Origin: Candidatus Latescibacterota bacterium
GTDB lineage: Bacteria > Latescibacterota > UBA2968
Assembly (NCBI GenBank): GCA_965204745.1
Contig: OZ242010.1
Location: 1,856,001 to 1,920,000, forward strand
Direction of reading: 5' to 3'
Length of the DNA: 64,000 nucleotides
In this document: one piece after another, positions 10,969 through 63,929 of the stretch
How positions within the stretch are numbered: position 1 is the stretch's first letter
Layout of the letters: every line of letters begins with the position of its first letter
The notes under the pieces: generated by a model
The model's input: the letters and a program-made list of their open reading frames with translations, nothing else
What the model was told of the DNA's origin: nothing
The model's database searches: none
Translations under genes and position numbers: made by a program

Positions 10969-12477
<1,509 letters not shown>

Positions 12478-14660: not shown

Positions 14661-14711
14661 AGTTAAGTCCAACCGATACTTAATACCAAATTGAATTGAT
14701 GTTAGCCTGAT

Positions 14712-15109
14712 ATGCGAATAAAGCGTTGAATCCATTTATTGGGACCTACCCCCCTGGCCCCCCTTCCTGTGAGGAAGGGGGGAATGGCGAGGGGTTGTGC
14801 GAGGGGTTTTCGCATTCGTTCGCCCTGCGGTATTCGCGGCAATCATGGGAATGGCGAGGGGTTGTGCGAGGGGTTTGGGTTTCCAGGGCGTGATCTATTC
14901 GCTCAAAGCCATCAGAACAGCCAGGGAGACAAACCTTCAAAAAGCCATGCGCTCCCCCTTTCCTTGTAGGAAAGGGGGCCGGGGGGATAGGTCCTACGAG
15001 GAAGGGGAAGAACATCTATCGTTGCGGAGAGGAGCCGGATGACTCGTCCATGTCTTTGGGCGATTGGGCGCGGCTTGCTTCCTACTCGCTTTCTACTCTT
15101 AATTCGCAT
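14712..15109 (+). mobile_element. IS982-derived MITE (both ends, no transposase) carrying REP-like palindromes
   Basis: Left end ATGCGAATAAAGCGTTGAATCCAT resembles the IS left end; right ~68 bp match the IS982 3' end; 5-bp direct repeat CTGAT at 14707-14711 and 15110-15114. Confidence 0.8.
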
Positions 15110-24737: not shown

Positions 24738-24809
24738 GGGGGCCTCCTGTGATGAGGGGGTTGTAAGGGATCTGGTGCGCGCTCGGGGTCGCGTCCCGAC
24801 CATTGACGC

Positions 24810-24990
24810 CAAGTCTACCGGTCTTGTATATGCAGCCTCAAGGGGCTTAGATACTCTTCGGCATAGACCCGGCGGTCGGGGGGCCTATCTTACCTACAAG
24901 GTCATCGCCTTCAAGAGGGGCCGGCCTTCCCCGAGCCGGGCATCAAGATGGCTTATCTCGATACGAGGGCGCAACTCCTAATTAACCCTT
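24810..24990 (-). ncRNA. Predicted IS110 bridge RNA (ends approximate)
   Basis: Two stem-enclosed internal loops; guides match the target (24912-24920, 24888-24895) and the donor junction (24849-24857, 24822-24829). Confidence 0.8.
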
Positions 24991-34273: not shown

Positions 34274-34314
34274 GCCAATTTCCTCCATGATATTTTGTTC
34301 ACTGCGCTTGTATC

Positions 34315-34384: not shown

Positions 34385-36823
34385 ATGGTTCTCACAGATG
34401 CCAGCGTTAGGCGGTCAGTCGCGGGAAAATGTCCCGTCCTGCTCGCTTGCTTACCGCTGCTCCTCGCGCTGTCAACGGTCTTTGTTTTTGGCCATGACCT
34501 GCGAAGCCACATAGAGCGTTCTTATAGTCACTCTGCCTTTACGCAGCATAAAATGACGATAGCCGCCAATCTGTCTTTGGATCACAACTTTCTGATGTTC
34601 TATGCCCAAACGCTCGAGGCAGATGGCACGGTTTCTTACGAACCGTATAATCGCCATCCCATAGGTGGTTATGTGCTCATCGTGCTGGCTATCCTGCCCT
34701 TTGGCGATGACTTGGCAGCCCAACTCTATGCGGCAAGGACGCTGATGTTGCTGTGCTTTGTTGCCACAGCACTGCTGGCGTATCTCTGCCTTTGCCGGCT
34801 GACACATCATCCATGGATCGCCGCAACCGCGACGCTCTTGGCATTTTCATCGTTCTATTGCTTGTTCTACAGCGATATGGTGGATAATGTATTGGGGATC
34901 GATCTGCTCGGGGTGATGCTGACTTTTCACGGGATGGTCATTTTCATTCGTGAGGGTCGCTTTCGGCAACTGCTGGTCAAGACGTGCATCGCGCTGTTTT
35001 TGGGCTGGCATGTCTATGCGTTGCTGTTGCCCTTTATCACACTCGGAGTGGCGCGAGAATGCCGAGGCAAGAGGCAAGAGGCAAGAGGCAAGAGGCAAGA
35101 GGCAAGAGGCAAGAGGCAAGAGGCGCGTTTAGCCCCTTGCAAGTTGAAATGCTACTTCCTGCTTCGCAGTCGCTATGTGTTGCTCGGCATTGTCGCATTG
35201 CTTTTGGGGTTGTCCTTGTTGACCTTTAATTTTGTCAATGAATACGTCGCGCTGAAAGGTGAGAAATCCCTGACGGAATTACCGTCTTTCCGGTCTATGA
35301 TATATCGCACGGGAATGGGTACCCAAGAAAATAGACCCCAGAACCCCTTGAAGTTGGGATTTTTCCTGCTAGGTCAATTTTCTCGCATTGGTGGGATGTC
35401 AACGCCGTATTTCATCCTGCCCTACCTCGGCGTGCCTAAGCCACCGAACTCTTACGTGCCGTTGTCCGTTGGTGTAGGCATTGGGGTGTTTGTTTCATGT
35501 CTGTTTGGGGTGTATTTCACGCGCCCGCGAATCCTTTGGGCGACCTTGGGTCTGTTTGGCTTCTGTTGGGCATTGCCCATGCGCCATCAAGTTAAACCGA
35601 ATGGGCATGAATTCGAGAGCGTATTTTACATCGGCCTGCCCCTGGTCTTCTTCTCGCTTATTCTGCTGTGCCTATCCCGCCGCTTCAAGACCCCGCCTTT
35701 GATGGTCGGCTTTGCGGGTGCTGCCCTGATCGTCTTTGTGCTTTCCAGTTTTCAGATGAGCCATTTCTATGCCCCCGATGCGACGCAACGCCAAAAGGTC
35801 GAACTGGCAGACGCGACAGCCATCCGCCGGTTAACGGCAGATGGCGACCTCATTTTTGTGCCGTTCTATGACTCACTTGATTCCATGCTATTATGGCAGA
35901 AGTTACGTTACTATTTGACGCGGAGGATCATTCATCCTCATTCTCTCACCGCAGAGGGCTTCACGGTGATGTTTGATCGCCTGGACACTGTACCCCCCTC
36001 GAGAGGGGCAAAACTTCCCGTGAAGACAGACGCGTTGCTCACGCCGAAAAACGAGCAGATATTCCTCTATGACTCCAAGAAATTGCTCGAGGAGTATCGG
36101 TATAAATATCAATGGGTCGTATCTGGCGAGTTGGTGGCGCGGTCAACCTTTGATGTGTATCGCGACGAGCATGTGTTGCATTACGTCAAAACGCCCTGTT
36201 CTGACGCGGACATGCAGACCGAATTCTTCTTGCACCTCTTTCCGGCAGACGAGAGATCTATTGCCTTCCACCGCAGGTGGCTTGGATATGACAACGAGGG
36301 CTTTAAGTTTTATGACCGCGGTTTGCGATTCGACGATAAATGCTTGGCGAGCATCGCGCTTCCGCACTACGATATCGCCCGGATTGAAACCGGGCCACTT
36401 CCCCCGGTCAAAGCAAGCAAAGAACGCGCTGATCATCCCGGGAGGCTCAAAGCGTATCGACAGGCATATCAACGGGCCGTGTCTGGTGAGCCTGTGGCGC
36501 GGTCAATTTTCGATGTGTATCGCGATGAGCGCACGTTGTATTACGTCAAAAGTCCCTGTTCTGATGCGGACGTGAAATTTCGATTCTTCTTACACCTCTT
36601 TCCCGCAGACGCGAAGGAGCTTCCCAGCCACCGCAGGCAGTATGGATATGACAACTACGACTTTGATTTTTCTTCGTACGGCCTGCGGTTCGATGACAAA
36701 TGCTTGGCGGGCATCGCGCTTCCGCACTATGCCATCGCTCGTATTGAAACGGGGCGGGTCCACTGGAACAGCGGCGGCAACCACTGGGAGGCTAAAATTT
36801 TTCTCGACGAACAGTCAAAGTAG
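34385..36823 (+). CDS. Array paralog 1: polytopic GT-C-like membrane protein with 2 C-terminal repeat domains
   Basis: About 10-12 hydrophobic segments; YNRHP loop; ATG 34385 with GAGG RBS; contains a GAGGCAA tract and a 39-bp insertion. Confidence 0.75.
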   Translation: MVLTDASVRRSVAGKCPVLLACLPLLLALSTVFVFGHDLRSHIERSYSHSAFTQHKMTIAANLSLDHNFLMFYAQTLEADGTVSYEPYNRHPIGGYVLIVLAILPFGDDLAAQLYAARTLMLLCFVATALLAYLCLCRLTHHPWIAATATLLAFSSFYCLFYSDMVDNVLGIDLLGVMLTFHGMVIFIREGRFRQLLVKTCIALFLGWHVYALLLPFITLGVARECRGKRQEARGKRQEARGKRQEARLAPCKLKCYFLLRSRYVLLGIVALLLGLSLLTFNFVNEYVALKGEKSLTELPSFRSMIYRTGMGTQENRPQNPLKLGFFLLGQFSRIGGMSTPYFILPYLGVPKPPNSYVPLSVGVGIGVFVSCLFGVYFTRPRILWATLGLFGFCWALPMRHQVKPNGHEFESVFYIGLPLVFFSLILLCLSRRFKTPPLMVGFAGAALIVFVLSSFQMSHFYAPDATQRQKVELADATAIRRLTADGDLIFVPFYDSLDSMLLWQKLRYYLTRRIIHPHSLTAEGFTVMFDRLDTVPPSRGAKLPVKTDALLTPKNEQIFLYDSKKLLEEYRYKYQWVVSGELVARSTFDVYRDEHVLHYVKTPCSDADMQTEFFLHLFPADERSIAFHRRWLGYDNEGFKFYDRGLRFDDKCLASIALPHYDIARIETGPLPPVKASKERADHPGRLKAYRQAYQRAVSGEPVARSIFDVYRDERTLYYVKSPCSDADVKFRFFLHLFPADAKELPSHRRQYGYDNYDFDFSSYGLRFDDKCLAGIALPHYAIARIETGRVHWNSGGNHWEAKIFLDEQSK
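35064..35124. repeat. (GAGGCAA)8 + GAGGC intragenic heptamer tract
   Basis: Counted directly; translates GKRQEAR repeats; absent from the other 11 copies. Confidence 0.95.
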
Positions 36824-36852
36824 ATCCCCTATCCATTTCAGAGGCTTAGGCC

Positions 36853-39546
36853 ATGATTCTCATTCCATCGGAAGCAAGCGTTAGGCGGTCAGTGGTGGGC
36901 AAACGTCCCGTTTTGCTCGCATGCTTACCACTTCTCCTCGCGCTGTCAACGGTCTTTGTTTTTGGGCATGACCTGCGAAGTCACATAGAGCGTTCTCATA
37001 CTCACTCTATCCCTACGCATCATAGAATGGCGATAGCCGCCAATCTGTCTTTGGATCACAACTTCTTGCAGTTCTATCTCCAAACGCTCGAGGCAGATGG
37101 CACGGTTTCTTACGAACCGTATAATCGCTTTCCCATAGGTGGGCATGGGCTCATTGCGCTGGCTATCCTGCCCTTTGGCGATGACTTGGCAAGCCAACTC
37201 TATGCGGCCAGGACCCTGATGTTGCTGTGCTTTGTTGCCACAGCACTGCTGGCGTATCTCTGCCTTTGCCGGCTGACACATCATCCATGGATCGCCGCAA
37301 CCGCGACGCTCTTGGCGTTCTCATCGTTCTATTGCTTGTTCTATAGCGATATGGTGCATAATGAAGCGGGGATCGATCTGCTCGGGGTGATGCTGACCTT
37401 CCACGGGATGGTCATTTTCTTATGTGAGGGGCGTTTTCGGCAACTGCTGGTCAAGACGTGCATCGCGCTGTTTTTGGGCTGGCATGTCTATGCGTTGCTG
37501 TTGCCCTTTATCGCGCTCGGAGTGGTGCGCGAATGCCTCCACATGCGTTCAGTCCCTTTCAAGTTGAAGTGCTCCTGCCTGCTTCGCAGTCGCTATGTGT
37601 TGCTCGGCATTGTCGCATTGCTGTTTGGTTTGTCCTTATTGGCCTTTAATTTTGTCAATGAATACGTCGCGCTGAAAGGTGAGAAATCCCTGACGGAATT
37701 ACCGTCTTTCCGGTCTATGATATATCGCACGGGAATGGGTACCCCAGAAGATCGCCCTTCGCGCCCCTTGAAGTGGGATTCCTTCCTGCGAGGTCAATTC
37801 TCTCGCATTGGTGGGATGTCAACGCCGTATTTTATTTTTCCCTGCTTTGGCGTGCTTAGGCCACCGCAATCTTACGTGCCCTTGTCCGTTGGTGTGGGCA
37901 TTGGGGTGTCTATTGCGTGTCTGTTTGGGGTGTATTTCACGCGCCCGAGAATCCTTTGGGCGACCTTGATTCTGTTTGGCTTCTGTTGGACATTGCCCAT
38001 ACGCCATAACGTTAAAATGCTTGGCCATGAATTCGAGAGCGTGTTTTACATCGGCCTGCCCCTGGTCTTCTTCTCGCTTATTCTGCTGTGTCTATCCCGA
38101 CGCTTCAAGACCCCTCCCTTGATGGTCGGCTTTGCGGGTGTTGCGCTGATCATCTTTGTGCTTTCCAGTTTTCAGATGAGCCATTTCTATGCCCCCGATG
38201 CGACGCAACGCCAAAAGGTCGAGCTATCGGACATTGCAGCCATCCGCCGGTTAACGGCAGATGGCGACCTCATTTTTGTGCCGTTCTATGACCCACCTGA
38301 TTTAAATCGGACGTCGCGAGCTTACGAGAGGGCGAAGAGAAATTACTATTGGTCGCGGAGGATCATTCACACTCATTCTCTCCCCGCAGAGGGCTTCACG
38401 ATGATGTACGATCGTCTGGAGACAGACGCACTGCTCACGCCGAAAAACGAGCGGATATTTCTTTATGACTCCAAGAAATTGCTCAAAGCGTATCGGCAGG
38501 CAGTCGTGTCTGGCGAGCTCGTGGCGCGGTCAACCTTTGATGTGTATCGCGATGAGCGTGCGGTGCATTACGTCAAAAGTCCCTGTTCTGACGCGGACAT
38601 GCAGACCAAATTCTTCTTGCACATCTTTCCGACAGACGCGAGATCGATTCCCGTCCGCTGCAGGTGGCTTGGATATGACAACGAGGTCTTTAAGTTTCAG
38701 GATCGCGGTCTGCGGTTCGATGACAAATGCTTGGCGAGCATCGCGCTTCCGCACTACGATATCGCCCGGATTGAAACCGGGTCACTTTCCCGCGATTCCG
38801 ATCCAGAGCGGCTCGAGGTGTATCGGCAGGCATATCAGCGGGTCGTGTCTGGCGAGGTGGTGGCGCGGTCAACCTTCGATGTGTATCGCGATGAGCGCAC
38901 GTTGTATTACGTCAAAAGTCCCTGTTCTGATGCGGACGTGAAATTTCGATTCTTCTTGCACATCTTTCCCGCAGACGCGAAGGAGCTTCCCGTCCATCGC
39001 AGGCCGTATGGATATGACAACTACGACTTTGATTTTTCTTCGCAAGGTCAGCGGTTCGATGACAAATGCTTGGCGGGCATCGCGCTTCCGCATTACGATA
39101 TCGCCCGGATTGAAACCGGGCCACTTTCCCCCGGTCAAAGCAATGAACGCGCTGATGATCCCGGCAGGCTCGAGGTGTATCGGCAGGTTTATCAACGGGT
39201 CGTGTCTGGCGTGCCTGTGGCGCGGTCAATTTTCGATGTGTATCGCGATGAGCGCACATTGTATTACGTCAAAAGTCCCTGTTCTGATGCGGATGTGAAA
39301 TTACAATTCTTCTTACACCTCTTTCCGGCAGACGCGAAGGAGCTTCCCAGCCGTCGCTGGCAGTGGGGGTATAACAACGACAACTTTTCTTTTGTTGATC
39401 AAGGTCAGCGGTTCGATGACAAATGCTTGGCGAGCATCGCGCTTCCGCACTATGCCATCGCTCGTATTGAAACGGGTCAGTTCCATTGGAACAGCGGTGG
39501 CAAACACTGGGAGGCTAAAATTTTTTTCGACGAACAATCAAAGTAG
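36853..39546 (+). CDS. Array paralog 2 (3 C-terminal domains)
   Basis: 897 aa; three FDVYRD..PCS..FFLH..KCL..LPHY units. Confidence 0.75.
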   Translation: MILIPSEASVRRSVVGKRPVLLACLPLLLALSTVFVFGHDLRSHIERSHTHSIPTHHRMAIAANLSLDHNFLQFYLQTLEADGTVSYEPYNRFPIGGHGLIALAILPFGDDLASQLYAARTLMLLCFVATALLAYLCLCRLTHHPWIAATATLLAFSSFYCLFYSDMVHNEAGIDLLGVMLTFHGMVIFLCEGRFRQLLVKTCIALFLGWHVYALLLPFIALGVVRECLHMRSVPFKLKCSCLLRSRYVLLGIVALLFGLSLLAFNFVNEYVALKGEKSLTELPSFRSMIYRTGMGTPEDRPSRPLKWDSFLRGQFSRIGGMSTPYFIFPCFGVLRPPQSYVPLSVGVGIGVSIACLFGVYFTRPRILWATLILFGFCWTLPIRHNVKMLGHEFESVFYIGLPLVFFSLILLCLSRRFKTPPLMVGFAGVALIIFVLSSFQMSHFYAPDATQRQKVELSDIAAIRRLTADGDLIFVPFYDPPDLNRTSRAYERAKRNYYWSRRIIHTHSLPAEGFTMMYDRLETDALLTPKNERIFLYDSKKLLKAYRQAVVSGELVARSTFDVYRDERAVHYVKSPCSDADMQTKFFLHIFPTDARSIPVRCRWLGYDNEVFKFQDRGLRFDDKCLASIALPHYDIARIETGSLSRDSDPERLEVYRQAYQRVVSGEVVARSTFDVYRDERTLYYVKSPCSDADVKFRFFLHIFPADAKELPVHRRPYGYDNYDFDFSSQGQRFDDKCLAGIALPHYDIARIETGPLSPGQSNERADDPGRLEVYRQVYQRVVSGVPVARSIFDVYRDERTLYYVKSPCSDADVKLQFFLHLFPADAKELPSRRWQWGYNNDNFSFVDQGQRFDDKCLASIALPHYAIARIETGQFHWNSGGKHWEAKIFFDEQSK

Positions 39547-39575
39547 ATCCCCTATCCATTTGGGAGGCTTAGGCC

Positions 39576-42281
39576 ATGATTCTCATTTTATCGGAGGCAA
39601 GCGTTAGGCGGTCAGTGGCGGGCAAATGTCCCGTTCTGCTCGCTTGCTTACCGCTGCTCCTCGCGCTGTCAACGGTCTTTGTTTTTGGGCATGACCTGCG
39701 AAGTCACATAGAGCGTTCTCATAGTCACTCTGTCCTTACGCATCATAGAATGTCGATAGCCGCCAATCTGTCTTTGGATCACAACTTCTTGCAGTTCTAT
39801 CTCCAAACGCTCGGGGCAGATGGCACGGTTTTTTACGACTGGCTGTACAATCGCTTTCCCATAGGTGGGCATGGGCTCATTGCGCTGGCTATCCTGCCCT
39901 TTGGCGATGACTTGGCAAGCCAACTCTATGCGGCCAGGACCCTGATGTTGCTGTGCTTTGTTGCCACAGCACTGCTGGCGTATCTCTGCCTTTGTCGGCT
40001 GACACATCATCCATGGATCGCCGCAACCGCGACGCTCTTGGCGTTCTCATCGTTCTATTGCTTGTACTACGCCGATATGGTCATGAATGAAACGGGGATC
40101 GACCTGCTTGGGGTAATGTTGACCTTTCACGGGATGGTCATTTTCTTATGTGAGGGTCGCTTTCGGCAACTGCTGGTCAAGACGTGCATCGCGCTGTTTT
40201 TGGGCTGGCATGTCTATGCGTTGCTGTTGCCCTTTATCGCGCTCGGATTGGTGCGCGAATGCCTCCACATGCGTTCAGCTCCTTTCAAACTGAAGTGCTC
40301 CCGCCTGCTTCGCAGTCGCTATGTGTTGCTCGGCATTGTCGCATTGCTTTTGGGGTTGTCCTTGTTGACCTTTAATTTTGTCAATGAGTACGTCGCGCTG
40401 AAAGGTGAGAAATCCCTGACGGAATTACCGTCTTTCCGGTCTATGATATATCGCATGGGAATAGGTACCCCAGAAAATCGCCCTTCGCGCCCCTTGAAGT
40501 GGGATTTCTTCCTGCTAGATCAATTCTCTCGCATTGGTGGGATGTCAACGCCGTATTTCATCCTGCCCTCTCTCGGCGCACTTAGGCCCCCAGAGTCTTA
40601 CGTGCCTTTGTCCGTTGGCGTGGGCATTGGGGTGTTTGTTGCGTGTCTGTTTGGGGTGTATTTCACGCGCCCGCGAATCCTTTGGGCGACCTTGGTTCTA
40701 TTTGGCTTCTGTTGGGCATTGCCCATGCGCTATAACGTTGAAGCACCTAACCATAGTTTCGAGAGCGTGTTTTACATCGGCCTGCCTCTGGTCTTCTTCT
40801 CGCTTATTCTGCTGTGCCTATCCCGCCGCTTCAAGACCCCGCTTTTGATGGTCGGCTTTGCGGGTGCTGCACTGATCATCTTTGTGCTTTCCAGTTTTCA
40901 GATGAGCCGCTTCTATGCCCCCGATGCGACGCAACGCCAAAAGGTCGAGCTATCGGACGTTACAGCCATCCGCCGGTTAACGGCAGATGGCGACCTCATT
41001 TTTATACCGTTCTCTGACCCACCTGATTTAAATCGGACGTCGCGACCTTACGAGAAGGCGAAGCAAAATTACTATTGGTCGCGGAGGATCATTCACTTTC
41101 ATTCTCTCCCCGCAGAGGGCTTCACAGTGATGTACGATCGCCTGGAGACAGACGCACTGCTCACGCCGAAAAACGATCGGATATTCCTTTATGACTCCAA
41201 GAAATTGCTCAAAGCGTATCGGCAGGCATATCAGCGGGTCGTGTCTGGCGAGTTCGTGGCGCGGTCAACCTTTGATGTTTATCGCGACGAGCATGCGTTG
41301 CATTACGTCAAAAGTCCCTGTTCTGATGCGGACATGCAGACCAAATTCTTCTTGCACCTCTTTCCGACAGACGCGAGATCGATTCCCGTCCGCCGCAGGT
41401 GGCTTGGATATAACGACAAAATTTTTAATTTTCAGGATCGCGGTCTGCGGTTCGATGACAAATGCTTGGCGAGCATCGCGCTTCCGCACTACGACATCGC
41501 CCGGATTGAAACCGGGTCACTTTCCCGCGATTCCGATCCAGAGCGGCTCGAGGTGTATCGGCAGGCATATCAGCGGGTCGTGTCTGGCGCGCCTGTGGCG
41601 CGGTCAATTTTCGATGTGTATCGCGATGAGCACATGTTGTATTACGTCAAAAGTCCCTGTTCTGATGCGGACGTAAAATTACGATTCTTCTTGCACATCT
41701 TTCCCTCAGACGCGAAGGAGCTTCCCGTCCACCGCAGGCAGTATGGATATGACAACTACGACTTTGATTTTTCTTTTCAAGGTCAGCGGTTCGATGACAA
41801 ATGCTTGGCGGGCATCGCGCTTCCGCCTTACGATATCGCCCGGATTGAAACCGGATCACTTTCCCCCGGTCAAAGCAAAGAACGCGCTGATGATCCCGGC
41901 AGGCTCGAGGTGTATCGGCAGGTATATCAGCGGGTCGTATCTGGCGCGCCTGTGGCGCGGTCAACCTTCGATGTGTATCGCGATGATCGCACGTTGTATT
42001 ACGTCAAAAGTCCCTGTTCTGATGCGGATGTGAAATTACAATTCTTCTTGCACATCTTTCCTGCAGACGCGAAGGAGCTTCCCAGCCGTCGCTGGCAGTG
42101 GGGGTATAACAACGACAACTTTTCTTTTGTTGATCAAGGTCAGCGGTTCGATGACAAATGCTTGGCGAGCATCGCGCTTCCGCACTATGCCATCGCTCGT
42201 ATTGAAACGGGTCAGTTCCATTGGAACAGCGGTGGCAAACACTGGGAGGCTAAAATTTTTTTCGACGAACAATCAAAGTAG
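39576..42281 (+). CDS. Array paralog 3 (3 C-terminal domains)
   Basis: 901 aa; same scaffold. Confidence 0.75.
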   Translation: MILILSEASVRRSVAGKCPVLLACLPLLLALSTVFVFGHDLRSHIERSHSHSVLTHHRMSIAANLSLDHNFLQFYLQTLGADGTVFYDWLYNRFPIGGHGLIALAILPFGDDLASQLYAARTLMLLCFVATALLAYLCLCRLTHHPWIAATATLLAFSSFYCLYYADMVMNETGIDLLGVMLTFHGMVIFLCEGRFRQLLVKTCIALFLGWHVYALLLPFIALGLVRECLHMRSAPFKLKCSRLLRSRYVLLGIVALLLGLSLLTFNFVNEYVALKGEKSLTELPSFRSMIYRMGIGTPENRPSRPLKWDFFLLDQFSRIGGMSTPYFILPSLGALRPPESYVPLSVGVGIGVFVACLFGVYFTRPRILWATLVLFGFCWALPMRYNVEAPNHSFESVFYIGLPLVFFSLILLCLSRRFKTPLLMVGFAGAALIIFVLSSFQMSRFYAPDATQRQKVELSDVTAIRRLTADGDLIFIPFSDPPDLNRTSRPYEKAKQNYYWSRRIIHFHSLPAEGFTVMYDRLETDALLTPKNDRIFLYDSKKLLKAYRQAYQRVVSGEFVARSTFDVYRDEHALHYVKSPCSDADMQTKFFLHLFPTDARSIPVRRRWLGYNDKIFNFQDRGLRFDDKCLASIALPHYDIARIETGSLSRDSDPERLEVYRQAYQRVVSGAPVARSIFDVYRDEHMLYYVKSPCSDADVKLRFFLHIFPSDAKELPVHRRQYGYDNYDFDFSFQGQRFDDKCLAGIALPPYDIARIETGSLSPGQSKERADDPGRLEVYRQVYQRVVSGAPVARSTFDVYRDDRTLYYVKSPCSDADVKLQFFLHIFPADAKELPSRRWQWGYNNDNFSFVDQGQRFDDKCLASIALPHYAIARIETGQFHWNSGGKHWEAKIFFDEQSK

Positions 42282-42310
42282 ATCCCCTATCCATTTGGGA
42301 GGCTTAGGCC

Positions 42311-44662: not shown

Positions 44663-44691
44663 ATCCCCTATCCATTTCAGAGGCTTAGGCC

Positions 44692-47031: not shown

Positions 47032-47060
47032 ATCCCCTATCCATTTCAGAGGCTTAGGCC

Positions 47061-49739: not shown

Positions 49740-49768
49740 ATCCCCTATCCATTTCAGAGGCTTAGGCC

Positions 49769-52072: not shown

Positions 52073-52137
52073 AGTAGGTGATACATCTGAGCGTTACGCA
52101 CAACTGCTCTTTCAAATCAACTTAGGAGGCTTAGGCC

Positions 52138-54468: not shown

Positions 54469-54497
54469 ATACCCTATCCATTTCAGAGACTTAGGCC

Positions 54498-56888: not shown

Positions 56889-56917
56889 ATACCATATCGT
56901 TTTAGGAGGCTTAGGCC

Positions 56918-59209
56918 ATGGTTCTAACAGATGCCAGCGTTAGGCGGTCAGTCGCGGGCAAACGTCCCGTTCTGCTCGCTTGCTTACCGTTGCTCCTCGC
57001 GCTGTCAACGGTCTTTATTTTTTGCCACGACCTGCGAAGCCACTGTGTACGTTCTTATAGTCACTCTGTCCTTACGCATCATAAAATGGCGATAGCCGCC
57101 AATCTGTCTTTGGATCACCACTTCCTGATGTTCTATCGCCAAACGCTCAATGCCGATGGCGCGGTTTCTTACGAACTGTATAATCGCTTTCCCATAGGTG
57201 GGTATGTGCTCATCGCGCTGGCTATCCTGCCCTTTGGCGATGACTTGGCAACCCAACTCTATGCGGCAAGGACCCTGATGTTGCTGTGCTTTGTTGCAAC
57301 AGCACTGCTGGCCTATCTCTGCCTTTGCCGGCTGACACATCATCCCTGGATCGCCGCAACCGCGACGCTCTTGGCGTTCTCATCATTCTATTGCTTGTTC
57401 TACAGCGATATGGTGCATAATGAAACGGGGATCGACCTGCTCGGGGTGATGCTGACTTTTCACGGGATGGTCATTTTCTTATGTGAGGGTCGTTTTCGGC
57501 AACTGCTGGTCAAGATGTGCATCGCGCTGTTTTTGGGCTGGCATGTCTATGCGTTGCTGTTGCCCTTTATCGCGCTCGGATTGGTGCGAGAATGCCGTCG
57601 TGCGCGTTCAGTCCCTTTCAAGTTGAAGTGCTCCCGCCTACTTCGCAGTCGCTATGTGTTGCTCGGCATTGTCGCGTTGCTCGTTGGGTTGTCCTTGTTG
57701 ACCTTTAATTTTGTCAATGAATACGTCGCGCTGAAAGGTGAGAAATCCCTGACGGAATTACCGTCTTTCCAGTCTATGATGTATCGCACGGGAATAGATA
57801 CCCCATGGTATAGACTACAGAACCCCTTGAGGTGGGATTCCTTTCTGCTGGGTCAATTCTCTCGCATTGGTGGGATGTTCACGCCGTATTTTATTTTCCC
57901 CTACCTTAGCGCACTTCCCCCGGAGTTTTATGTGCCCTTGTCTGTTGGCGCGGGCATTGGGGTGTTTGTTTTTTATCTATTTGGGGTATATTTCACGCGC
58001 CCGAGAATCCTTTGGGCGACCTTGGGTCTGGTTGGCTTCTGTTGGGCATTGCCCATGCGCCATAATGTTAAAGAGCTTTCCCATAGCTTCGAGAGCGTGT
58101 TTTACATCGGCCTGCCTCTGGTCTTCTTCTCGCTTCTTCTGCTGTGCCTATCCCGCCGCTTCAAGGCCCCTCCTTTAATGGTCGGCTTTGCGGGTGTTGC
58201 CCTGATCGTCTTTGTGCTTTCCAGTTTTCAGATGAGCCACTTCTATGACCTCGATGCGACGCAACGCCAAAAGGTCGAACTGTCCGACGTTACAGCCATC
58301 CGCCGGTTAACGGCAGAGGACGACCTCATTTTTCTACCGTTCTATAGCTCATCTGATTTAAATCCGCCGAAGCTACATTACTATTTGGCGCGGAGGATCA
58401 TTCACGCTCATTCTCTCACCGCAGAGGGCTTCACGCTGATGGATGATCGCCTGGAGACAGACGCGTTGCTCACGCCGAAAAACGAGCGGATATTTCTTTA
58501 TGACTCCAAGAAATTGCTCAAAGCGTATCGGCAGGCAGTCGTGTCTGGCGAGTTGGTGGCGCGGTCAACCTTTGATGTGTATCGGGATGAGCGCACGTTG
58601 CATTACGTCAAAAGTCCCTGTTCTGACGCGGACATGAAGACCAAATTCTTCTTGTACATCTTTCCGACAGATGAGAGATCTATTCCCTTTGGATATGACA
58701 ACGAAGTCTTTAAGTTTCAGGATCGCGGTTTGCGCTTCGACGATAAATGCTTGGCGAGCGTCGCGCTTCCGAACTACGATATCGCCCGGATTGAAACCGG
58801 GCCACTTTCCCCGGCCCAAAGCAAAGAACGCGGAAGGCGCGAGGTGTATCGGCAATATCAACGGGTCGTGTCTGGCGAGTTGGTGGCGCGGTCAACCTTC
58901 GATGTGTATCGCGACGAGCGTGTGTTGCATTACGTCAAAACGCCCTGTTTTGATGAAGACATAAAAACCAAATTCTTCTTGCACATCTTTCCGACCGACA
59001 GAAAGGAACTGCCCTCCCATCGCTGGCTGTGGGGGTATGACAACGACGACTTTTCTTGGCGTAAGCGAGGCCTGCGGTTCGATGACAAATGCTTGGCGAG
59101 CATCGCGCTTCCACACTACGACATCGCCCGGATTAAAACGGGTCAGTTCTACGATGATGGGGTTAGAGTGTGGGAGGTAGAAATTTCTCTCAACGAGCAG
59201 TCAAAGTAG
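56918..59209 (+). CDS. Array paralog 10 (2 C-terminal domains)
   Basis: 763 aa; MVLTDASV start as in copy 1. Confidence 0.75.
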   Translation: MVLTDASVRRSVAGKRPVLLACLPLLLALSTVFIFCHDLRSHCVRSYSHSVLTHHKMAIAANLSLDHHFLMFYRQTLNADGAVSYELYNRFPIGGYVLIALAILPFGDDLATQLYAARTLMLLCFVATALLAYLCLCRLTHHPWIAATATLLAFSSFYCLFYSDMVHNETGIDLLGVMLTFHGMVIFLCEGRFRQLLVKMCIALFLGWHVYALLLPFIALGLVRECRRARSVPFKLKCSRLLRSRYVLLGIVALLVGLSLLTFNFVNEYVALKGEKSLTELPSFQSMMYRTGIDTPWYRLQNPLRWDSFLLGQFSRIGGMFTPYFIFPYLSALPPEFYVPLSVGAGIGVFVFYLFGVYFTRPRILWATLGLVGFCWALPMRHNVKELSHSFESVFYIGLPLVFFSLLLLCLSRRFKAPPLMVGFAGVALIVFVLSSFQMSHFYDLDATQRQKVELSDVTAIRRLTAEDDLIFLPFYSSSDLNPPKLHYYLARRIIHAHSLTAEGFTLMDDRLETDALLTPKNERIFLYDSKKLLKAYRQAVVSGELVARSTFDVYRDERTLHYVKSPCSDADMKTKFFLYIFPTDERSIPFGYDNEVFKFQDRGLRFDDKCLASVALPNYDIARIETGPLSPAQSKERGRREVYRQYQRVVSGELVARSTFDVYRDERVLHYVKTPCFDEDIKTKFFLHIFPTDRKELPSHRWLWGYDNDDFSWRKRGLRFDDKCLASIALPHYDIARIKTGQFYDDGVRVWEVEISLNEQSK

Positions 59210-59238
59210 ATCCCCTATCCATTTGGGAGGCTTAGGCC

Positions 59239-61560
59239 ATGATTCTCATTCCATCAGAGGCAAGCGTTAGGCGGTCAGTCGCGGGAAAATGTCCCGTTCT
59301 GCTCGCATGCTTACCGCTACTCCTCGCGCTGTCAACGGTCTTTGTTTTTGGGCATGACCTGCGAAGTCACATAGAGCGTTCTCCTGGTTACTCTAACCTT
59401 ACGCATCATAAAATGTCGATAGCCGCCAACCTTTCTCCAGATCACAACTTTCTGATGTTCTATCGCCAAACGCTCAATGCCGATGGCGCGGTTTATTACG
59501 AAATGTATAATCGCCATCCCATAGGTGAGTTTGTGCTCATTGCGCTGGCTATCCTGCCCTTTGGCGATGACTTGGCAAGCCAACTCTATGCGGCAAGGAC
59601 CCTGATGTTGCTGTGCTTTGTTGCAACAGCACTGCTGGCGTATCTCTGCCTTTGCCGGCTAATACATCATCCCTGGATCGCCGCAACCGCGACGCTCTTG
59701 GCGTTCTCATCGTTCCATTGCTTGTTCTACAGCGATATGGTGTTCAATGATACGTGGATCGACCTGCTTGGGGTAATGCTGACTTTTCACGGGATGATCA
59801 TTTTCTTCTGTGAGGGTCGCTTTCGGCAACTGCTGGTCAAGACGTGCATCGCGCTGTTTTTGGGCTGGCATGTCTATGCGCTGCTGTTGTCCTTTATCGC
59901 GCTCGGAGTGGTGCGGGAATGCCGCCGTGCGCGTTCAGTCCCTTTCAAGTTGAAGTGCTCCCGCCTGCTTCGCAGTCGCTATGTGTTGCTCGGCATTGTC
60001 GCATTGCTGTTTGGGTTGTCCTTGTTGACCTTTAATTTCGCTAATGAATACGTCGCGCTGAAAGGTGAGAAATCCCTGACGGAATTACCGTCTTTCCAGT
60101 CTATGACGTATCGCACGGGAATAGACCCAGGAAATAGACCAGGTCGCCCCTTGAGGTGGAATTCCTTTCTGCGAGATCAATTCTCTCGCATTGGTGGGGT
60201 GTCAACGCCGTATTTTATTTTTTTCTATCTTAGCGCACTTCCCCCGCAGTCTTACGTGCCCTTGTCCGTTGGTGTGGGCATTGGGGTGTCTATTGCGTGT
60301 CTGGTGGGGGTGTATTTCACGCGCCCGAGAATCCTTTGGGCGCCCTTGATTCTGCTTGGCTTCTGTTGGGCATTGCCCATGCGCTATCAAGTTAAAACGC
60401 CTGGTCATGCTTATGAGAGCATGTTTTACATCGGCCTGCCACTGGTCTTCTTCTCGCTTATTCTGCTGTGCCTATCCCGACGCTTCAATGCCCCGCTTTT
60501 GATGGTCGGCTTTGCGGGTATTGCCCTGATCGTCTTTGTGCTTTCCAGTTTTCAGATGAGCCATTTCTATGCCCCCGATGCGACGCAACGCCAAAAGGCT
60601 GAGTTGGCAGACGCGACAGCCATCCGCCGGTTAACGGCAGAGGACGACCTCATTTTCTTTACCCCTGGTTTCAATCTGGCGAAGCTACGTTACTATTTGG
60701 CGCGGAGGATCATTCACTCTCATTCTCTCACCGCAGAGGGCTTCACGCTGATGGATGATCGCCTGGAGACAGACGCGTTGCTCACGCCGAAAAACGAGCG
60801 GATATTCCTTTATGACTCCAAGAAATTGCTCAAAGCGTATCGGCAGGCAGGCGTGTCTGGCGAGGTGGTGGCGCGGTCAACCTTCGATGTATATCGCGAT
60901 GAGCACACGTTGTATTACGTCAAAAGTCCCTGTTCTGACGCGGACATGCAGACCGAATTCTTCTTGCACATCTTTCCGACAGACACGCAGGAACTGCTCT
61001 CTCATCGCTGGCAGTGGGGGTATGACAACGACGACTTTTCTTTTCATACGCGAGGCCTGCGGTTCGATGACAAATGCTTGGCGAGCATCGCGCTTCCACA
61101 CTACGACATCGCCCGGATTGAAACCGGGCCACTTTCCCCCGGCCAAAGCAATGAACGCACTGATGATCCCGGGATGCTCAAAGCGCATCGGCAGGTATAT
61201 CAACGGGTCGTGTCTGGCGCGCCTGTGGCGCGGTCAACTTTCGATGTGTATCGCGATGATCGCACGTTGTATTACGTCAAAAGTCCCTGTTCTGATGCGG
61301 ACGTGAAATTACGATTCTTCTTACACCTCTTTCCCGCAGACGCGAAGGAGCTTCTCAGCGGCTTTCACCGCTGGCAGTATGGATATAACAACGACGACTT
61401 TAATTTTTCTGATCAGGGCCTGCGGTTCGATGACAAATGCTTGGCGAGCGTCGCGCTTCCGCACTACGACATCGCTCGTATTGAAACGGGTCAGTTCCAC
61501 TGGAACAGCGGTAGCAAACAATGGAAGGCTAAAATTTTTCTTGACGAACAGTCAAAGTAG
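59239..61560 (+). CDS. Array paralog 11 (2 C-terminal domains)
   Basis: 773 aa; same scaffold. Confidence 0.75.
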   Translation: MILIPSEASVRRSVAGKCPVLLACLPLLLALSTVFVFGHDLRSHIERSPGYSNLTHHKMSIAANLSPDHNFLMFYRQTLNADGAVYYEMYNRHPIGEFVLIALAILPFGDDLASQLYAARTLMLLCFVATALLAYLCLCRLIHHPWIAATATLLAFSSFHCLFYSDMVFNDTWIDLLGVMLTFHGMIIFFCEGRFRQLLVKTCIALFLGWHVYALLLSFIALGVVRECRRARSVPFKLKCSRLLRSRYVLLGIVALLFGLSLLTFNFANEYVALKGEKSLTELPSFQSMTYRTGIDPGNRPGRPLRWNSFLRDQFSRIGGVSTPYFIFFYLSALPPQSYVPLSVGVGIGVSIACLVGVYFTRPRILWAPLILLGFCWALPMRYQVKTPGHAYESMFYIGLPLVFFSLILLCLSRRFNAPLLMVGFAGIALIVFVLSSFQMSHFYAPDATQRQKAELADATAIRRLTAEDDLIFFTPGFNLAKLRYYLARRIIHSHSLTAEGFTLMDDRLETDALLTPKNERIFLYDSKKLLKAYRQAGVSGEVVARSTFDVYRDEHTLYYVKSPCSDADMQTEFFLHIFPTDTQELLSHRWQWGYDNDDFSFHTRGLRFDDKCLASIALPHYDIARIETGPLSPGQSNERTDDPGMLKAHRQVYQRVVSGAPVARSTFDVYRDDRTLYYVKSPCSDADVKLRFFLHLFPADAKELLSGFHRWQYGYNNDDFNFSDQGLRFDDKCLASVALPHYDIARIETGQFHWNSGSKQWKAKIFLDEQSK

Positions 61561-61589
61561 ATACCTTATCCATTTCAGAGGCTTAGGCC

Positions 61590-63929
61590 ATGATTCTCAT
61601 TCCATCGGATGCCGGGGTTAGGCGGTCAGTGGCGGGAAAACGTCCCGTTCTGCTCGCTTGCTTGCCGCTTCTCCTCGCGCTTTCAACGGTCTTTGTTTTT
61701 GGCCATGACCTGCGAAGTCACCTTGTGCGTTCTGTGGGTCACTCTGACTTTACGTATCATAAAATGGCGATAGCCGCCAACCTTTCTCCAGATCACCACT
61801 TTCTGATGTTCTATCGCCAAACGCTCAATGCCGATGGCGCGGTTTCTTACGTACCGAATAATCGCTTTCCCATAGGTGGGCATGTGCTCATCGCGCTGGC
61901 TATCCTGCCCTTTGGCGATGACTTGGCAACCCAACTCTATGCGGCAAGGACCCTGATGTTGCTGTGCTTTGCCGCCACAGCACTGCTGGCGTATCTCTGC
62001 CTTTGCCGGCTGACACATCATCCCTGGATCGCCGCAACCGCGACGCTCTTGGCGTTCTCATCGTTCTATTGCTTGTTCTTCAGCGATATGGTGTTCAATG
62101 AAACGGGGATCGATCTGCTCGGCGTGATGCTGACTTTTCACGGGATGGTCATTTTCATTTTTGAGGGTCGCTTTCGGCAACTGCTGGTCAAGATGTGCGT
62201 CGCGCTGTTTTTGGGCTGGCATGTCTATGCGTTGCTGTTGCCCTTTATCGCGCTCGGAGTGGTGCGGGAATGTTGCCGTGCGCGTTCAGTCCCTTTCAAG
62301 TTGAAATGCTCCCGCCTGCTTCGCAGTCGCTATGTGTTGCTCGGCATTGTCGCGTTGCTCGTTGGGTTGTCCTTATTGACCTTTAATTTTGTCAATGAAT
62401 ACGTCGCGCTGAAAGGTGAAAAATCACTGACGGAATTACCGTCTTTCCGGTCTATGATATATCGCACGGGAATGGGTACCCCAGAAAATCGCCCCTTGAA
62501 CTCCTTGAAGTGGGATTTCTTCCTGATAGAACAATTCTTTCGTATTGATTTGATGTGCATGCCGCAATTCATCCTGTCCTGCCTCGATGCACTTCCCCGG
62601 AGTTATTATGTGCCCTTGTCTGTTGGCGCGGGCATTGGGGTGTCTATTGCGTGTCTGTTTGGGGTGTATTTCACGCGCCCGAGAATCCTTTGGGCGACCT
62701 TGGTTCTGTTCGGCTTCTGTTGGGCATTGCCCATGCGCCATAACGTTAAAGTGTATGCCCATGACTTCGAGAGCGTGTTTTACATCGGTCTGCCCCTGGT
62801 CTTCTTCTCGCTAATTCTGCTGTGCCTATCCCGCCGCTTCAAGACCGCGCCTTTGATGGTCGGCTTTGCGGGTATTGCGCTGATCGTCTTTGTGCTTTCC
62901 AGTTTTCAGATGAGCCATTTCTATGCCCTCGATGCGACGCAACGCCAAAAGGTCGAGCTATCGGACATTGTAGCCATCCGCCGGTTAACGACAGAGAACG
63001 ACCTCATTTTTATTTTTTTTAACTCGTCCAACCTCTACATCGAGACAAATCGGATAAGATACTATCTGAACCGGAGAATTATTCACGCTCATGCTCTCAC
63101 CGCAGAGGGCTTCACAGTGATGTTTGATCGCCTGGAGACAGACGCGTTGCTCACGCCGAAAAACGAGCGGATATTCCTTTATGACTCCAAGAAATTGCTC
63201 GAGGAGTATCGGCAGGTATATCAACGGGTCGTGTCTGGCGAGTTGGTGGCGCGCTCGACCTTCGATGTGTATCGCGATGAGCGTGCATTGCATTACGTCA
63301 AAAGTCCCTGTTCTGATGCGGACATGCAGACCAAATTCTTCTTCCACATCTTTCCGGCAGACGAGAGATCTATTCCCTTCCACCGCAGGTGGTTTGGATA
63401 TGATACCGCCGTCTTTGCGTTTTGGAAACACGGTTTGCAATTCGACGATAAATGCTTGGCGAGTATCGCGCTTCCACACTACGATATCGCCCGGATTGAA
63501 ACCGGGCCACTTTCCCCCGGCCAAAGCAATGAACGCGCTTATGATCCCGACAGGCTCGAGGTGTATCGGCAGGCATATCGACAGGTCGTGTCTGGCGAGT
63601 TGGTGGCGCGGTCAACCTTTGATGTGTATCGCGACGAGCGTGTGTTGCATTACGTCAAAACGCCCTGTTCTGACGCGGACGTGAAGACCAGATTCTTCTT
63701 GCACATCTTCCCGACTAACAGGAAGGAACCATCCTCCCTGTACTATCGGTGGAGGTATGAAAACATCGACTTTGATTTTTCTTCGTACGGCCTGCGGTTC
63801 GATGGCAAATGCTTGGCGAGCATCGCGCTTCCGCACTACGACATCGCCCGGATTAAAACGGGTCAGTTCTACGACGATGGGGTTAGAGTGTGGGAGGCAG
63901 AAATTTTTCTCAACGAGCAGTCAAAGTAG
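61590..63929 (+). CDS. Array paralog 12 (2 C-terminal domains)
   Basis: 779 aa; same scaffold; downstream sequence does not restart a unit within the window. Confidence 0.75.
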   Translation: MILIPSDAGVRRSVAGKRPVLLACLPLLLALSTVFVFGHDLRSHLVRSVGHSDFTYHKMAIAANLSPDHHFLMFYRQTLNADGAVSYVPNNRFPIGGHVLIALAILPFGDDLATQLYAARTLMLLCFAATALLAYLCLCRLTHHPWIAATATLLAFSSFYCLFFSDMVFNETGIDLLGVMLTFHGMVIFIFEGRFRQLLVKMCVALFLGWHVYALLLPFIALGVVRECCRARSVPFKLKCSRLLRSRYVLLGIVALLVGLSLLTFNFVNEYVALKGEKSLTELPSFRSMIYRTGMGTPENRPLNSLKWDFFLIEQFFRIDLMCMPQFILSCLDALPRSYYVPLSVGAGIGVSIACLFGVYFTRPRILWATLVLFGFCWALPMRHNVKVYAHDFESVFYIGLPLVFFSLILLCLSRRFKTAPLMVGFAGIALIVFVLSSFQMSHFYALDATQRQKVELSDIVAIRRLTTENDLIFIFFNSSNLYIETNRIRYYLNRRIIHAHALTAEGFTVMFDRLETDALLTPKNERIFLYDSKKLLEEYRQVYQRVVSGELVARSTFDVYRDERALHYVKSPCSDADMQTKFFFHIFPADERSIPFHRRWFGYDTAVFAFWKHGLQFDDKCLASIALPHYDIARIETGPLSPGQSNERAYDPDRLEVYRQAYRQVVSGELVARSTFDVYRDERVLHYVKTPCSDADVKTRFFLHIFPTNRKEPSSLYYRWRYENIDFDFSSYGLRFDGKCLASIALPHYDIARIKTGQFYDDGVRVWEAEIFLNEQSK

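Follow-up and report, generated by a model that had tools for sequence, protein, structure and literature searches.

What a host, a phage, or an immune system sees of a bacterium is decided by GT-C enzymes, which add their decorations to the envelope outside the cytoplasm. ArnT, the lipid A aminoarabinose transferase, is encoded as a single gene in the arn operon, and the mycobacterial Emb arabinosyltransferases are tandem-encoded and differ in their acceptors. The Gtr modules of Salmonella and Shigella (GtrA/GtrB plus a serotype-specific GtrC) deploy polytopic periplasmic transferases, each variant placing another decoration on the same glycan, and several modules per genome generate surface heterogeneity. 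Such modules are dispersed, often carried on prophages, and each comes with a GtrAB of its own; promoter methylation makes them phase-variable. According to the sections of PMC7801869 drawn on here, an Asp opens the first external loop (EL1) of every GT-C homologue and an Arg located before TM10 binds the phosphate of the donor, and in the solved enzymes the acceptor site is made of EL1, EL2, and EL4 and the donor site of EL1 and EL4. The corresponding sections of PMC11127046 describe ORF12, a pentofuranosyltransferase of CAZy family GT136 from the three-component O-antigen system of Citrobacter youngae, as a protein of 11 TM helices with a catalytic Asp next to TM1, a small helical periplasmic domain following that helix, and a beta-rich, Ig-like carbohydrate-binding module (CBM) after TM11. 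The enzyme works in the periplasm, where it decorates the finished O antigen, and the CBM binds the acceptor, as do the C-terminal carbohydrate-binding modules of the Emb proteins (as cited in PMC11127046).

The locus described here lies in a window of 64,000 nucleotides of Latescibacterota DNA (the whole stretch that was analyzed). Taken together, the evidence makes it probable that its proteins are GT-C-fold membrane glycosyltransferases of the ArnT/PMT/STT3 type whose sequence family is uncatalogued, and that the array is a repertoire of such periplasmic enzymes, of differing acceptor or donor specificity, which diversify surface glycans. The array comprises 12 co-oriented intact ORFs of 763-901 aa on the plus strand (34385-63929), all without internal stops. 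Copy 1 (34385..36823) encodes 812 aa from its ATG, an alternative in-frame TTG start upstream at 34331 being less likely. Three C-terminal beta-sandwich repeats are found in copy 2 (36853..39546, 897 aa), copy 3 (39576..42281, 901 aa), and copy 6 (47061..49739, 892 aa), and two in copy 4 (42311..44662, 783 aa), which is followed by copy 5 (44692..47031, 779 aa). The C-terminal end of copy 7 (49769..52072, 767 aa) is shortened and divergent. Copy 8 (52138..54468) encodes 776 aa, and copy 9 (54498..56888, 796 aa) carries an internal 39-nt tandem duplication at 56020-56097. Copies 10 (56918..59209, 763 aa), 11 (59239..61560, 773 aa), and 12 (61590..63929, 779 aa), the last of which was used for the structure model, complete the series. 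Identity to copy 1 ranges from 77 to 83%, and a 13th copy of the gene resides elsewhere in the same genome. Ten of the 11 spacers measure 29 nt, the exception being the 65-nt spacer before copy 8, and nearly all end in ...CCATTTCAGAGGCTTAGGCC-ATG, which places GAGG 8 nt before the ATG (e.g., 36824..36852 on the plus strand). The preliminary description of 12 open frames, each with its own ribosome-binding spacer, is thus borne out. Promoter scans returned 18 and 7 promoter-like sites where 15.0 and 9.9 were expected, and a terminator scan found terminator-like sites at or below expectation, with none on the plus strand within spacers.

A divergent sulfatase gene (32861..34288, minus strand) is the syntenic upstream neighbor of the array. 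Its counterpart upstream of the 4-copy array of a congeneric MAG is 91% identical, compared with only 72-74% for the array genes themselves. An IS110-family transposase (23730..24812, minus strand) recurs, identical and equally oriented, about 8.5 kb past the array, and the two copies therefore bracket a segment of about 49 kb. Neither the flanks of the array nor those of 13 related loci hold a polyprenyl-phosphate sugar synthase or flippase, and no conserved partner gene was found among the 104 ORFs flanking those 13 loci. The genome also has 19 further ORFs whose PMT_2 scores pass the cut-off and, in addition to these, one GtrA-like flippase, which indicates that it runs lipid-linked periplasmic glycosylation.

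The AlphaFold (AF2) model of copy 12 (pLDDT 83.7, pTM 0.80) predicts what is clearly a GT-C fold. Its best match in VIA-align was ArnT (5f15_A; Z 22.0, rmsd 4.4 A, 424 aa), with Pmt1/2 (Z 20.3), AglB (Z 19.5), STT3, and PglB spanning 18-20. The top 20 matches were all GT-C (Z at least 11.1) and the next match had Z 6.3. In Foldseek, GT-C enzymes made up all 27 rows down to E 1.5e-3. The matched enzymes were ArnT, PMT, STT3/PglB, ALG, and Emb/Aft, with nothing else at similar scores, and the ESM Atlas neighbors were RgtA/B/C/D-like and PMT_2 clusters. The ArnT/PMT-like fold that had been guessed from the letters was therefore the right one. Sidedness in copy 12 was inferred from DSSP of the model and the positive-inside rule (the distribution of charged residues), and the resulting layout of 11 TM helices runs through TM1 (residues 19-42), EL1 (43-111), TM2-TM3, EL2 (165-172), TM4-TM7, EL4 (274-341), TM8-TM9, EL5 (380-388), TM10-TM11, a periplasmic linker (443-535), and beta-sandwich repeats (536-650 and 651-779). 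Two juxtamembrane helices (49-64 and 96-108) lie in EL1. The inferred topology, with its cytoplasmic N-terminus, long EL1 and EL4, short EL2, EL3, and EL5, and periplasmic C-terminus, fits the scheme given in the consulted sections of PMC7801869. Beyond the membrane domain, a periplasmic alpha/beta linker leads into two or three Ig-like beta-sandwich repeats. When the periplasmic domain was searched alone, matches were generic (Ig/FN3/CBM, Z at most 7.3), with no specific family among them, and the linker (residues 1-230 of the model of that domain) was barely covered. The C-terminal repeat also ends 5 other polytopic membrane proteins of the same genome.

Twenty-two residues are kept in 12/12 copies and are 89-100% conserved across 56 distant relatives: D40, R42, N64, D82, G83, N91, R92, P94, D166, H184, R194, K201, E270, Y271, R292, Q315, P325, W378, P381, R383, H391, and E394. 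Two of them stand out by position. D40, the Asp of the HDLRSH motif at the C-terminal end of TM1, is shared by 89% of the distant relatives, and R383, which lies in EL5 directly before the helix spanning 389-417 (TM10), by 93%. Judged by topological position rather than superposition, they are candidate counterparts of the Asp of ArnT (D55) and PglB (D56) and of the Arg that binds the donor phosphate. The preliminary description had seen no clear DE catalytic motif in loop 1; this needs correcting, since by topology D40 falls where GT-C enzymes have their catalytic Asp. An hhalign comparison of the family profile with a DE-motif GT-C-like protein of the same genome aligned the C-terminal repeat alone, and consequently gives no residue-level link for the TM domain.

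Variation and selection along the copies were measured with NG86 windows and a tree-free minimum-change count. Variation was strongly non-uniform, with pN ranging from 0.014 to 0.45 in 15-codon windows, and mean pairwise amino acid difference was 0.089 in TM helices versus 0.22-0.32 in external loops, with 0.54 for residues 294-307 of copy 12, which form the hottest loop. The near-fixed TM scaffold with variable inter-helix loops that had been noticed earlier was thus recovered, and the motifs reported with it (HDLRSH, NR(F/H)P, DMVxNxxG, YR(T/M)G, MRxxVxxxxH, and DLIF) are all present, each with variable residues after it or inside it. The variable external segments are EL1, EL2, EL4, EL5, and the periplasmic domain. 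To the sites listed at the time we add the periplasmic linker at 471-491, the loops of the C-terminal repeats, and the cytoplasmic loop 226-236, which bears an 18-aa insert in copy 1. With dS between copies of about 0.22, TM helices had a dN/dS of 0.33 and external loops had one of 0.67 (0.75 in EL1, 0.88 in EL2, 0.56 in EL4, and 1.66 in EL5), and the non-synonymous to synonymous odds ratio of external loops against TM helices was 2.9 (Fisher P = 4e-7). No segment had dN/dS significantly above 1: omega came to about 2.1 (P = 0.097) at best, for residues 43-60, and to 0.66-1.34 for the remaining hot segments.

These patterns bear on the alternative that the genes are redundant duplicates under relaxed constraint, kept for dosage or left as a neutral by-product of unequal crossing-over, with a single specificity and loops that merely tolerate change. 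We consider this unlikely. It accords with the fact that no loop has dN/dS significantly above 1 and with the active unequal recombination that the tandem structure and gene conversion reveal. Furthermore, positions variable in the array tend to vary across the family too (Spearman -0.35), and the hot loops are also the most variable ones in the wider family, so that part of the pattern reflects ordinary low constraint. Note however that all 12 copies are intact, that their TM dN/dS is 0.33, that none has lost a conserved external residue, and that other assemblies retain 1:1 orthologues of individual copies. Across the family, cytoplasmic loops (0.37) vary as much as external loops do, but they differ little within the array (0.11). 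The ratio of array to family diversity is accordingly 0.30 in cytoplasmic loops and 0.35 in TM helices, as against 0.59-0.86 in external loops and 0.75-0.86 in hot segments. In addition, EL1 positions 45, 46, 51, 90, and 98 differ within the array although they are more than 90% conserved in distant relatives. The word "diversifying", used in the preliminary description, consequently holds for the enrichment of non-synonymous change on the external face beyond what family constraint would lead one to expect; it does not extend to positive selection on any single loop, where dN/dS is not significantly above 1, nor to rapid turnover, the copies being stably inherited between related assemblies.

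The reading of the array as a repertoire of glycosyltransferases of differing specificity accommodates both the fixed and the variable parts of the proteins. If the copies work like the solved GT-C enzymes, the sugar would come from a polyprenyl-phosphate-linked donor on the outer face of the inner membrane, and each copy would pass it to an envelope acceptor, which may be a glycan, a lipid, or a protein. In this scheme Asp40 would catalyze the transfer or activate the acceptor, Arg383 would bind the phosphate of the donor, and a polymeric acceptor may be held by the beta-sandwich repeats. The variable loops probably converge on one pocket, as their position in the topology, rather than a superposition, suggests. 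Since the TM scaffold and the catalytic candidates are fixed and the loops that would build the pocket differ, the copies most likely differ in specificity, and together they would diversify the glycan coat of the cell surface.

Nine of the 12 window copies pair 1:1 with proteins of other assemblies at 92-99.7% identity. Copy 3 has a 98% orthologue (P0002) in another assembly, and copy 5 differs from its orthologue (P0017) at 2 of 779 residues. Shared tracts exceeded the global 95% null in 5 of 66 copy pairs, which indicates gene conversion, and significant tracts join non-adjacent copies (e.g., codons 68-134 of copies 9 and 12 and codons 353-379 of copies 8 and 10). Differences between orthologues fall in runs, and the alternative sequence is found in other paralogues. 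The array probably grew by tandem duplication in this lineage, with gene conversion reshuffling the copies, and is inherited as a stable set that no dedicated mutator rewrites.

A heptanucleotide tandem repeat, GAGGCAA x8.7 at 100% identity (35064..35124, plus strand), lies inside copy 1 and encodes a (GKRQEAR)x3 insert in the TM6-TM7 cytoplasmic loop. In the one comparison made, the orthologue of copy 1 has one 7-aa unit (three heptamers) fewer and keeps the frame. Such a perfect repeat in the first gene, its length difference of three units, the tracts joining non-adjacent copies, and the match of orthologue difference runs to other paralogues would all be expected of a contingency locus, in which heptamer slippage and gene conversion of loop cassettes switch the array at high frequency. 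We nevertheless judge programmed variation of this kind improbable. All copies are intact with their own RBS and none therefore resembles a silent cassette, orthologue identities of 92-99.7% imply slow turnover, the sole length difference observed preserves the reading frame, and no inverted repeats of the invertible-promoter type were found. Around the array start, four inverted-repeat pairs with 12-14-nt arms were of chance quality and bore no invertible-promoter signature; three had arms 611-1062 nt apart, and the arms of the fourth were 116 nt apart inside copy 1. A diversity-generating or dedicated hypermutation system was also considered. No reverse transcriptase was found among 32 ORFs scanned upstream in the window (E up to 1e-5), and this result, together with the dS of 0.22 and the orthologue identities, speaks against it; the array is not a hypermutation system.

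Searches of Pfam, NCBIfam, and PDB profiles found no sequence-level link to a characterized glycosyltransferase family. Array proteins had no significant match in Pfam or NCBIfam. Scans for PMT_2 (PF13231), to which the CAZy families GT39 and GT83 are related, at E up to 1 in 3 copies and of NCBIfam with 2 copies gave none, and the Wzy_C_2 match of one copy (E 0.052) was weak and below cut-off. The PDB profile search was uninformative, as it returned a match of about 100 aa to the TM segment of an RND transporter (E 7.6e-4) and two others at E above 0.9. It is the lack of a Pfam glycosyltransferase match, along with the Wzy_C_2 and RND matches, that might point away from glycosyltransferases and toward a GT-C-like scaffold used as a non-catalytic receptor or transporter, or toward a polymerase or ligase of the Wzy/O-antigen-ligase type. 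This is very improbable, given that every fold match down to Z 11 is a GT-C protein, that the nearest SEDS-type match (the FtsW complex) has Z 6.0, and that the family conserves the acidic and basic residues that an active GT-C enzyme should have on its external side; the receptor option of the preliminary description finds no support.

That strain variants of one or a few genes had been joined into a false array, a concern raised at the outset, is hardly credible even though the contigs built from short reads of four public runs are interrupted within the array and leave its order unconfirmed, since the copies differ in repeat number and by a dS of about 0.22, distinct orthologues of each paired copy occur in independent assemblies, several per contig (five on a contig of 5.28 Mb and two each on contigs of 22.9 kb and 132.5 kb), a congeneric MAG also holds tandem arrays (4 copies at the syntenic site and 3 elsewhere), and three runs from three studies cover every one of the 30 bins across the first 20 kb at 95% identity or better. 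Contig pieces within the array measured 115-200 nt in the four runs, too short to re-check copy order. Two runs showed odd joints in their contigs (37412>52762 and 51311>43833, with sides of 20-45 nt), which do not exceed what is expected of paralogous repeats in de Bruijn contigs.

The family comprises 2892 clusters at 50% identity (E up to 0.001), 1219 of which reach 1e-30. It is patchy within the phylum, occurs also in MAGs of other phyla, and is often found in tandem. A pattern search for related loci with a single protein gave 47 matches and 0 confirmed loci; the related loci were found by an alignment-based scan. The host of the array is a sponge-associated bacterium, and the matching runs are labelled sponge metagenome. 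A literature search, with supplements outside its scope, found no description of this family or array, and the consulted portion of a paper on sponge Latescibacterota (PMC12993501) gives glycosyltransferase counts without mention of the family. The locus defines a sizeable protein family that has no name in Pfam or NCBIfam, and its occurrence in several phyla and in sponge metagenome runs makes it a candidate marker of symbiont surface tailoring. As a natural mutagenesis series, it offers 13 near-identical scaffolds whose differences concentrate in the loops thought to choose the substrate, so that the relation of loop sequence to acceptor or donor specificity in GT-C enzymes becomes directly testable. 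More speculatively, the array could be one part of a symbiosis-linked "glycan-code" toolkit, from a family that spread horizontally among unrelated sponge symbionts (Latescibacterota, Dehalococcoidia, Binatia, Nitrospirales, Gammaproteobacteria, and Vicinamibacterales) and repeatedly expanded in tandem, with gene conversion of acceptor-site loop cassettes and heptamer gating of the operon varying the glycans. We hold this to be doubtful; if true, populations would vary their envelope glycans and escape host phagocytosis or phage adsorption.

In contrast to the dispersed Gtr modules, the locus is a single array with no GtrAB partners. EmbC-EmbA-EmbB (PDB 7BVF and 7BVH) are likewise GT-C paralogues with C-terminal modules and appear among the fold matches, but they are three genes rather than 12, the proteins are larger and match much more weakly (Z 11.1), and no loop-focused variation between near-identical copies is known in them. 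GT136 ORF12, compared by architecture, shares the layout of the array proteins. Its neighbors are a polyprenyl-phosphoribose synthase and a MATE flippase, whereas the array has no adjoining synthase or flippase and 12 copies instead of one. ArnT (GT83; PDB 5F15/5EZM) resembles the array proteins in its cytoplasmic N-terminus, its long EL1 with two juxtamembrane helices, and its periplasmic C-terminal domain, and its EL1 Asp and basic donor-phosphate residue have candidate counterparts in D40 and R383. Identity in the structural alignment is 11%, however, the array proteins have no PMT_2 Pfam match, and, unlike ArnT, the array family combines 11 inferred TM helices with two or three C-terminal Ig-like repeats in 12 tandem copies.

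The array (34385-63929, + strand) consists of 12 head-to-tail ORFs of 763-901 aa with no internal stops, and a GAGG sits 8 nt upstream of each ATG, so the preliminary description of open frames with their own ribosome-binding spacers holds. The intergenic spacers are near-identical in sequence and measure 29 nt in 10 of 11 cases, with 65 nt before copy 8. This conserved spacer argues for ATG 34385, rather than TTG 34331, as the probable start of copy 1. Identity to copy 1 is 77-83% (between-copy mean pairwise dN 0.11, dS 0.22), and a third C-terminal repeat of ~119 aa is present in copies 2, 3 and 6. Copy 7 ends (52000-52137) in a shortened, divergent C-terminus (…IKTGQWKPKIFLRMNR) followed by the sole 65-nt spacer, as though a small deletion or a frame change had affected its 3' end. 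Copy 9 carries a 39-nt tandem duplication (56020-56097; 2.0 copies, 92% matches) that doubles LTAEGFTV..DR, a segment within the periplasmic linker. The host genome, a single contig of 5.48 Mb, holds a 13th full copy at ~3.93 Mb that adjoins an IstB-like gene and a sulfatase.

No significant family was found in Pfam (three copies tested) or NCBIfam (two copies tested), and a profile search of PDB sequences matched nothing meaningful. We modelled copy 12 (61590-63929, +; its residue numbering is used throughout) with AlphaFold2 from a 68-sequence alignment (mean pLDDT 83.7, pTM 0.80). When VIA-align compared the model with 48,161 PDB representatives, the top match was ArnT (5f15_A; Z 22.0, rmsd 4.4 A over 424 residues), ahead of Pmt1/2, AglB, Pmt4, STT3, ALG12 and PglB; all of the best 20 matches were membrane glycosyltransferases of the GT-C class with Z of at least 11.1, and the following match had a Z of 6.3. 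Foldseek concurred, bearing out the ArnT/PMT-like fold proposed earlier, and the ESM-Atlas neighbours were RgtA-D-like and PMT_2 clusters (score 0.98).

DSSP and the distribution of charged residues define 11 TM helices, the external loops EL1 (43-111, with helices 49-64 and 96-108 and a hairpin 74-89), EL2 (165-172), EL3 (209-211), EL4 (274-341) and EL5 (380-388), and a periplasmic C-terminal part from residue 443 onward. This layout is that of the GT-C/PMT clan as set out in PMC7801869, according to which all homologues share two residues, an Asp opening EL1 and a donor-phosphate-binding Arg ahead of TM10, the acceptor site being built from EL1, EL2 and EL4 and the donor site from EL1 and EL4. 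In the model, D40 (in the HDLRSH motif), D166 (EL2) and R383 (EL5) would occupy the places of these key residues, an equivalence by position alone. The three candidates are retained in 12/12 copies and in 89%, 100% and 93%, respectively, of 56 distant relatives, and 19 more external or interface residues are invariant across the array.

Variation among the copies is strongly localized, with pN spanning 0.014 to 0.45 across 15-codon windows. Structural classes were assigned without regard to variability, over the 779 of 957 alignment columns with a copy-12 residue. The dN/dS was 0.33 in TM helices and 0.40 in cytoplasmic loops, 0.75 in EL1, 0.88 in EL2, 0.56 in EL4 and 1.66 in EL5, 0.52 in the periplasmic linker and 0.46-0.50 in the beta-sandwich repeats. 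By a tree-free count of minimum changes, external loops had 180 non-synonymous against 61 synonymous changes, and TM helices 90 against 88 (odds ratio 2.9 by Fisher test, P=4e-7). The loop-focused diversification of the preliminary description therefore stands as a contrast between external loops (0.67 overall) and TM helices, but not as selection above neutrality, since none of the hot segments tested had an omega significantly above 1: in the best, 43-60, 33 changes were non-synonymous and 4 synonymous (omega ~2.1, P=0.097), segment 294-307 reached 1.34, and the remainder ranged from 0.66 to 1.14.

The best-supported reading of these patterns is that the array is a predicted repertoire of active periplasmic GT-C glycosyltransferases with differing acceptor or donor pockets, which would decorate envelope glycans or proteins in varied ways. 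Its main rival, that the copies are redundant duplicates under relaxed constraint, draws on the fact that a dN/dS above 1 was not demonstrated. However, every copy is intact, all copies keep each catalytic candidate residue, and the excess variation is limited to one membrane face. Positions variable in the array do tend to vary among the distant relatives as well (Spearman -0.35 over 765 positions). The ratio of array to family diversity was 0.30 for cytoplasmic loops, 0.35 for TM helices, 0.59-0.86 for external loops and 0.75-0.86 for hot segments, family conservation being somewhat overstated because the 56 distant rows average 63% identity to one another. Since this ratio separates the membrane faces, the extra variation belongs specifically to the periplasmic side and does not simply reflect loops that are free to vary.

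The persistence of single copies as orthologues also speaks against relaxed constraint. A quick IQ-TREE analysis with SH-aLRT support only (58 rows: 13 own copies, 43 close database proteins, including 3 that match window copies exactly, and 2 outgroups) placed the own-genome copies and those of the closest assemblies in one clade (support 100), with copies of a congeneric MAG in clades apart from it. Nine window copies pair 1:1 with proteins of other assemblies (99.7-92% identical, differing at 2/779 up to 62/796 residues), as does the 13th copy; a single 5.28-Mb contig carries five of the partners, contigs of 22.9 kb and 132.5 kb carry two each, and among the matches listed there was no separate orthologue for copies 2, 4 and 7. 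Orthologue and paralogue differences share columns (rate 0.102 in 145 hot versus 0.0063 in 540 cold columns), and orthologue differences are often run-like, the alternative sequence being found in another paralogue. In a GENECONV-like permutation (729 ungapped polymorphic sites of 2871 columns), 5 of 66 pairs exceeded the global 95% null, and significant shared tracts include codons 68-134 of copies 9 and 12 and codons 353-379 of copies 8 and 10. Thus, the array is a stable inherited set that exchanges segments via gene conversion. At the syntenic site of the congeneric MAG, identity is 91% for the divergent upstream sulfatase but only 72-74% (to copy 12) for the array genes, of which there are four.

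A programmed switch of the array is a minority possibility, suggested by a perfect GAGGCAA tandem repeat (x8.7; 35064-35124) within copy 1. The repeat encodes (GKRQEAR)x3 in the TM6-TM7 cytoplasmic loop, and gain or loss of one or two units would put this first array gene out of frame; P0021, the 99% orthologue of copy 1, is without exactly one 7-aa unit (three heptamers). A hypermutation device is disfavoured, given that the array looks stably inherited and that none of 32 scanned upstream ORFs encodes a reverse transcriptase.

Sulfatases and transposases flank the array on both sides, and a GH2 gene lies downstream. The sulfatases flanking the array and the 13th copy are at 32861-34288 (-), at 1067-2512 (+) and 9868-11289 (-) of L058, a locus on the same contig, and at 1023-2342 (+) of locus L053. 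Two IS110-family transposases in the same orientation (23730-24812 (-) and L058:8386-9468 (-), contig positions 1927386-1928468; 100% identical, 360/360 aa) bracket a ~49-kb segment containing the array, sulfatases and GH2 gene, and recombination between this pair could remove or relocate the entire block. Three DDE transposase genes lie within 14 kb upstream, an inverted pair (20559-21452 (+) and 30043-30909 (-); 96% identical) and a third at 31344-32444 (-); this stretch is a region of genome plasticity. A DUF7689 protein (12722-13258, +) adjoins an HsdS-like type I restriction-modification specificity gene (13380-14735, -); neither is related to the array. Genome-wide, 19 ORFs exceed the Pfam PMT_2 cut-off (21 at E <= 0.001; e.g., at 1411321-1424121 and 17 other places), several of them clustered near 1.41-1.42 Mb, and there is one GtrA-like flippase. 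GT-C enzymes overall are strongly expanded in this organism.

Matches occurred in 2 of 20 other genomes of the genus (E <= 1e-20), and a TM-domain match in 5 of 167 other genomes of the phylum (E <= 1e-30). Relatives were encoded in 380 of 430 candidate stretches from a species-representative genome collection, and 1.84 billion 50%-identity clusters yielded 2892 matches at E <= 0.001 and 1219 at <= 1e-30. The MAGs that supplied the 52 loci kept bear the titles Latescibacterota, Dehalococcoidia/Chloroflexota, Binatia, Nitrospirales, Gammaproteobacteria and Vicinamibacterales; outside the genus, identity is 37-47%. Runs of 2 to at least 4 tandem copies recur among these loci (e.g., L001, L002, L004, L042, L046). 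A scan of 104 ORFs at 13 related loci revealed no conserved neighbour gene; the neighbours are Wzy_C, GT2 and GT1 genes at one locus, and a PMT_2 gene plus a sulfotransferase at another. For the first 10 kb, 26-45% of sampled words occur in runs labelled sponge metagenome, one of which covers all 30 bins of the first 20 kb at >= 95% identity. A literature search found no description of the family or array.

The periplasmic part, modelled separately (pLDDT 84.3), comprises an alpha/beta linker and then two beta-sandwiches that match generic Ig, FN3 and CBM folds only (Z <= 7.3). Its repeat signature, FDVY...PC...FFLH..P...C...LP.Y.I..I.TGQ, also ends five other proteins of the genome (L054:2973-6293, L055:3129-4739, L055:5439-7268, L056:3229-5343 and L057:3202-4353, all on the - strand). 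These have 1-2 repeat copies each and no significant Pfam family; the majority are polytopic membrane proteins, an RYDEA motif follows TM1 in one, and one includes fn3 domains. The repeat therefore behaves as a general periplasmic module, and looks like an uncatalogued one common to several membrane-transferase families. The layout of the array proteins is also that of ORF12, an experimentally studied GT136 enzyme: PMC11127046 describes 11 TM helices, a helical domain following TM1 and, at the C-terminus, an Ig-like CBM to which the O-antigen acceptor binds.
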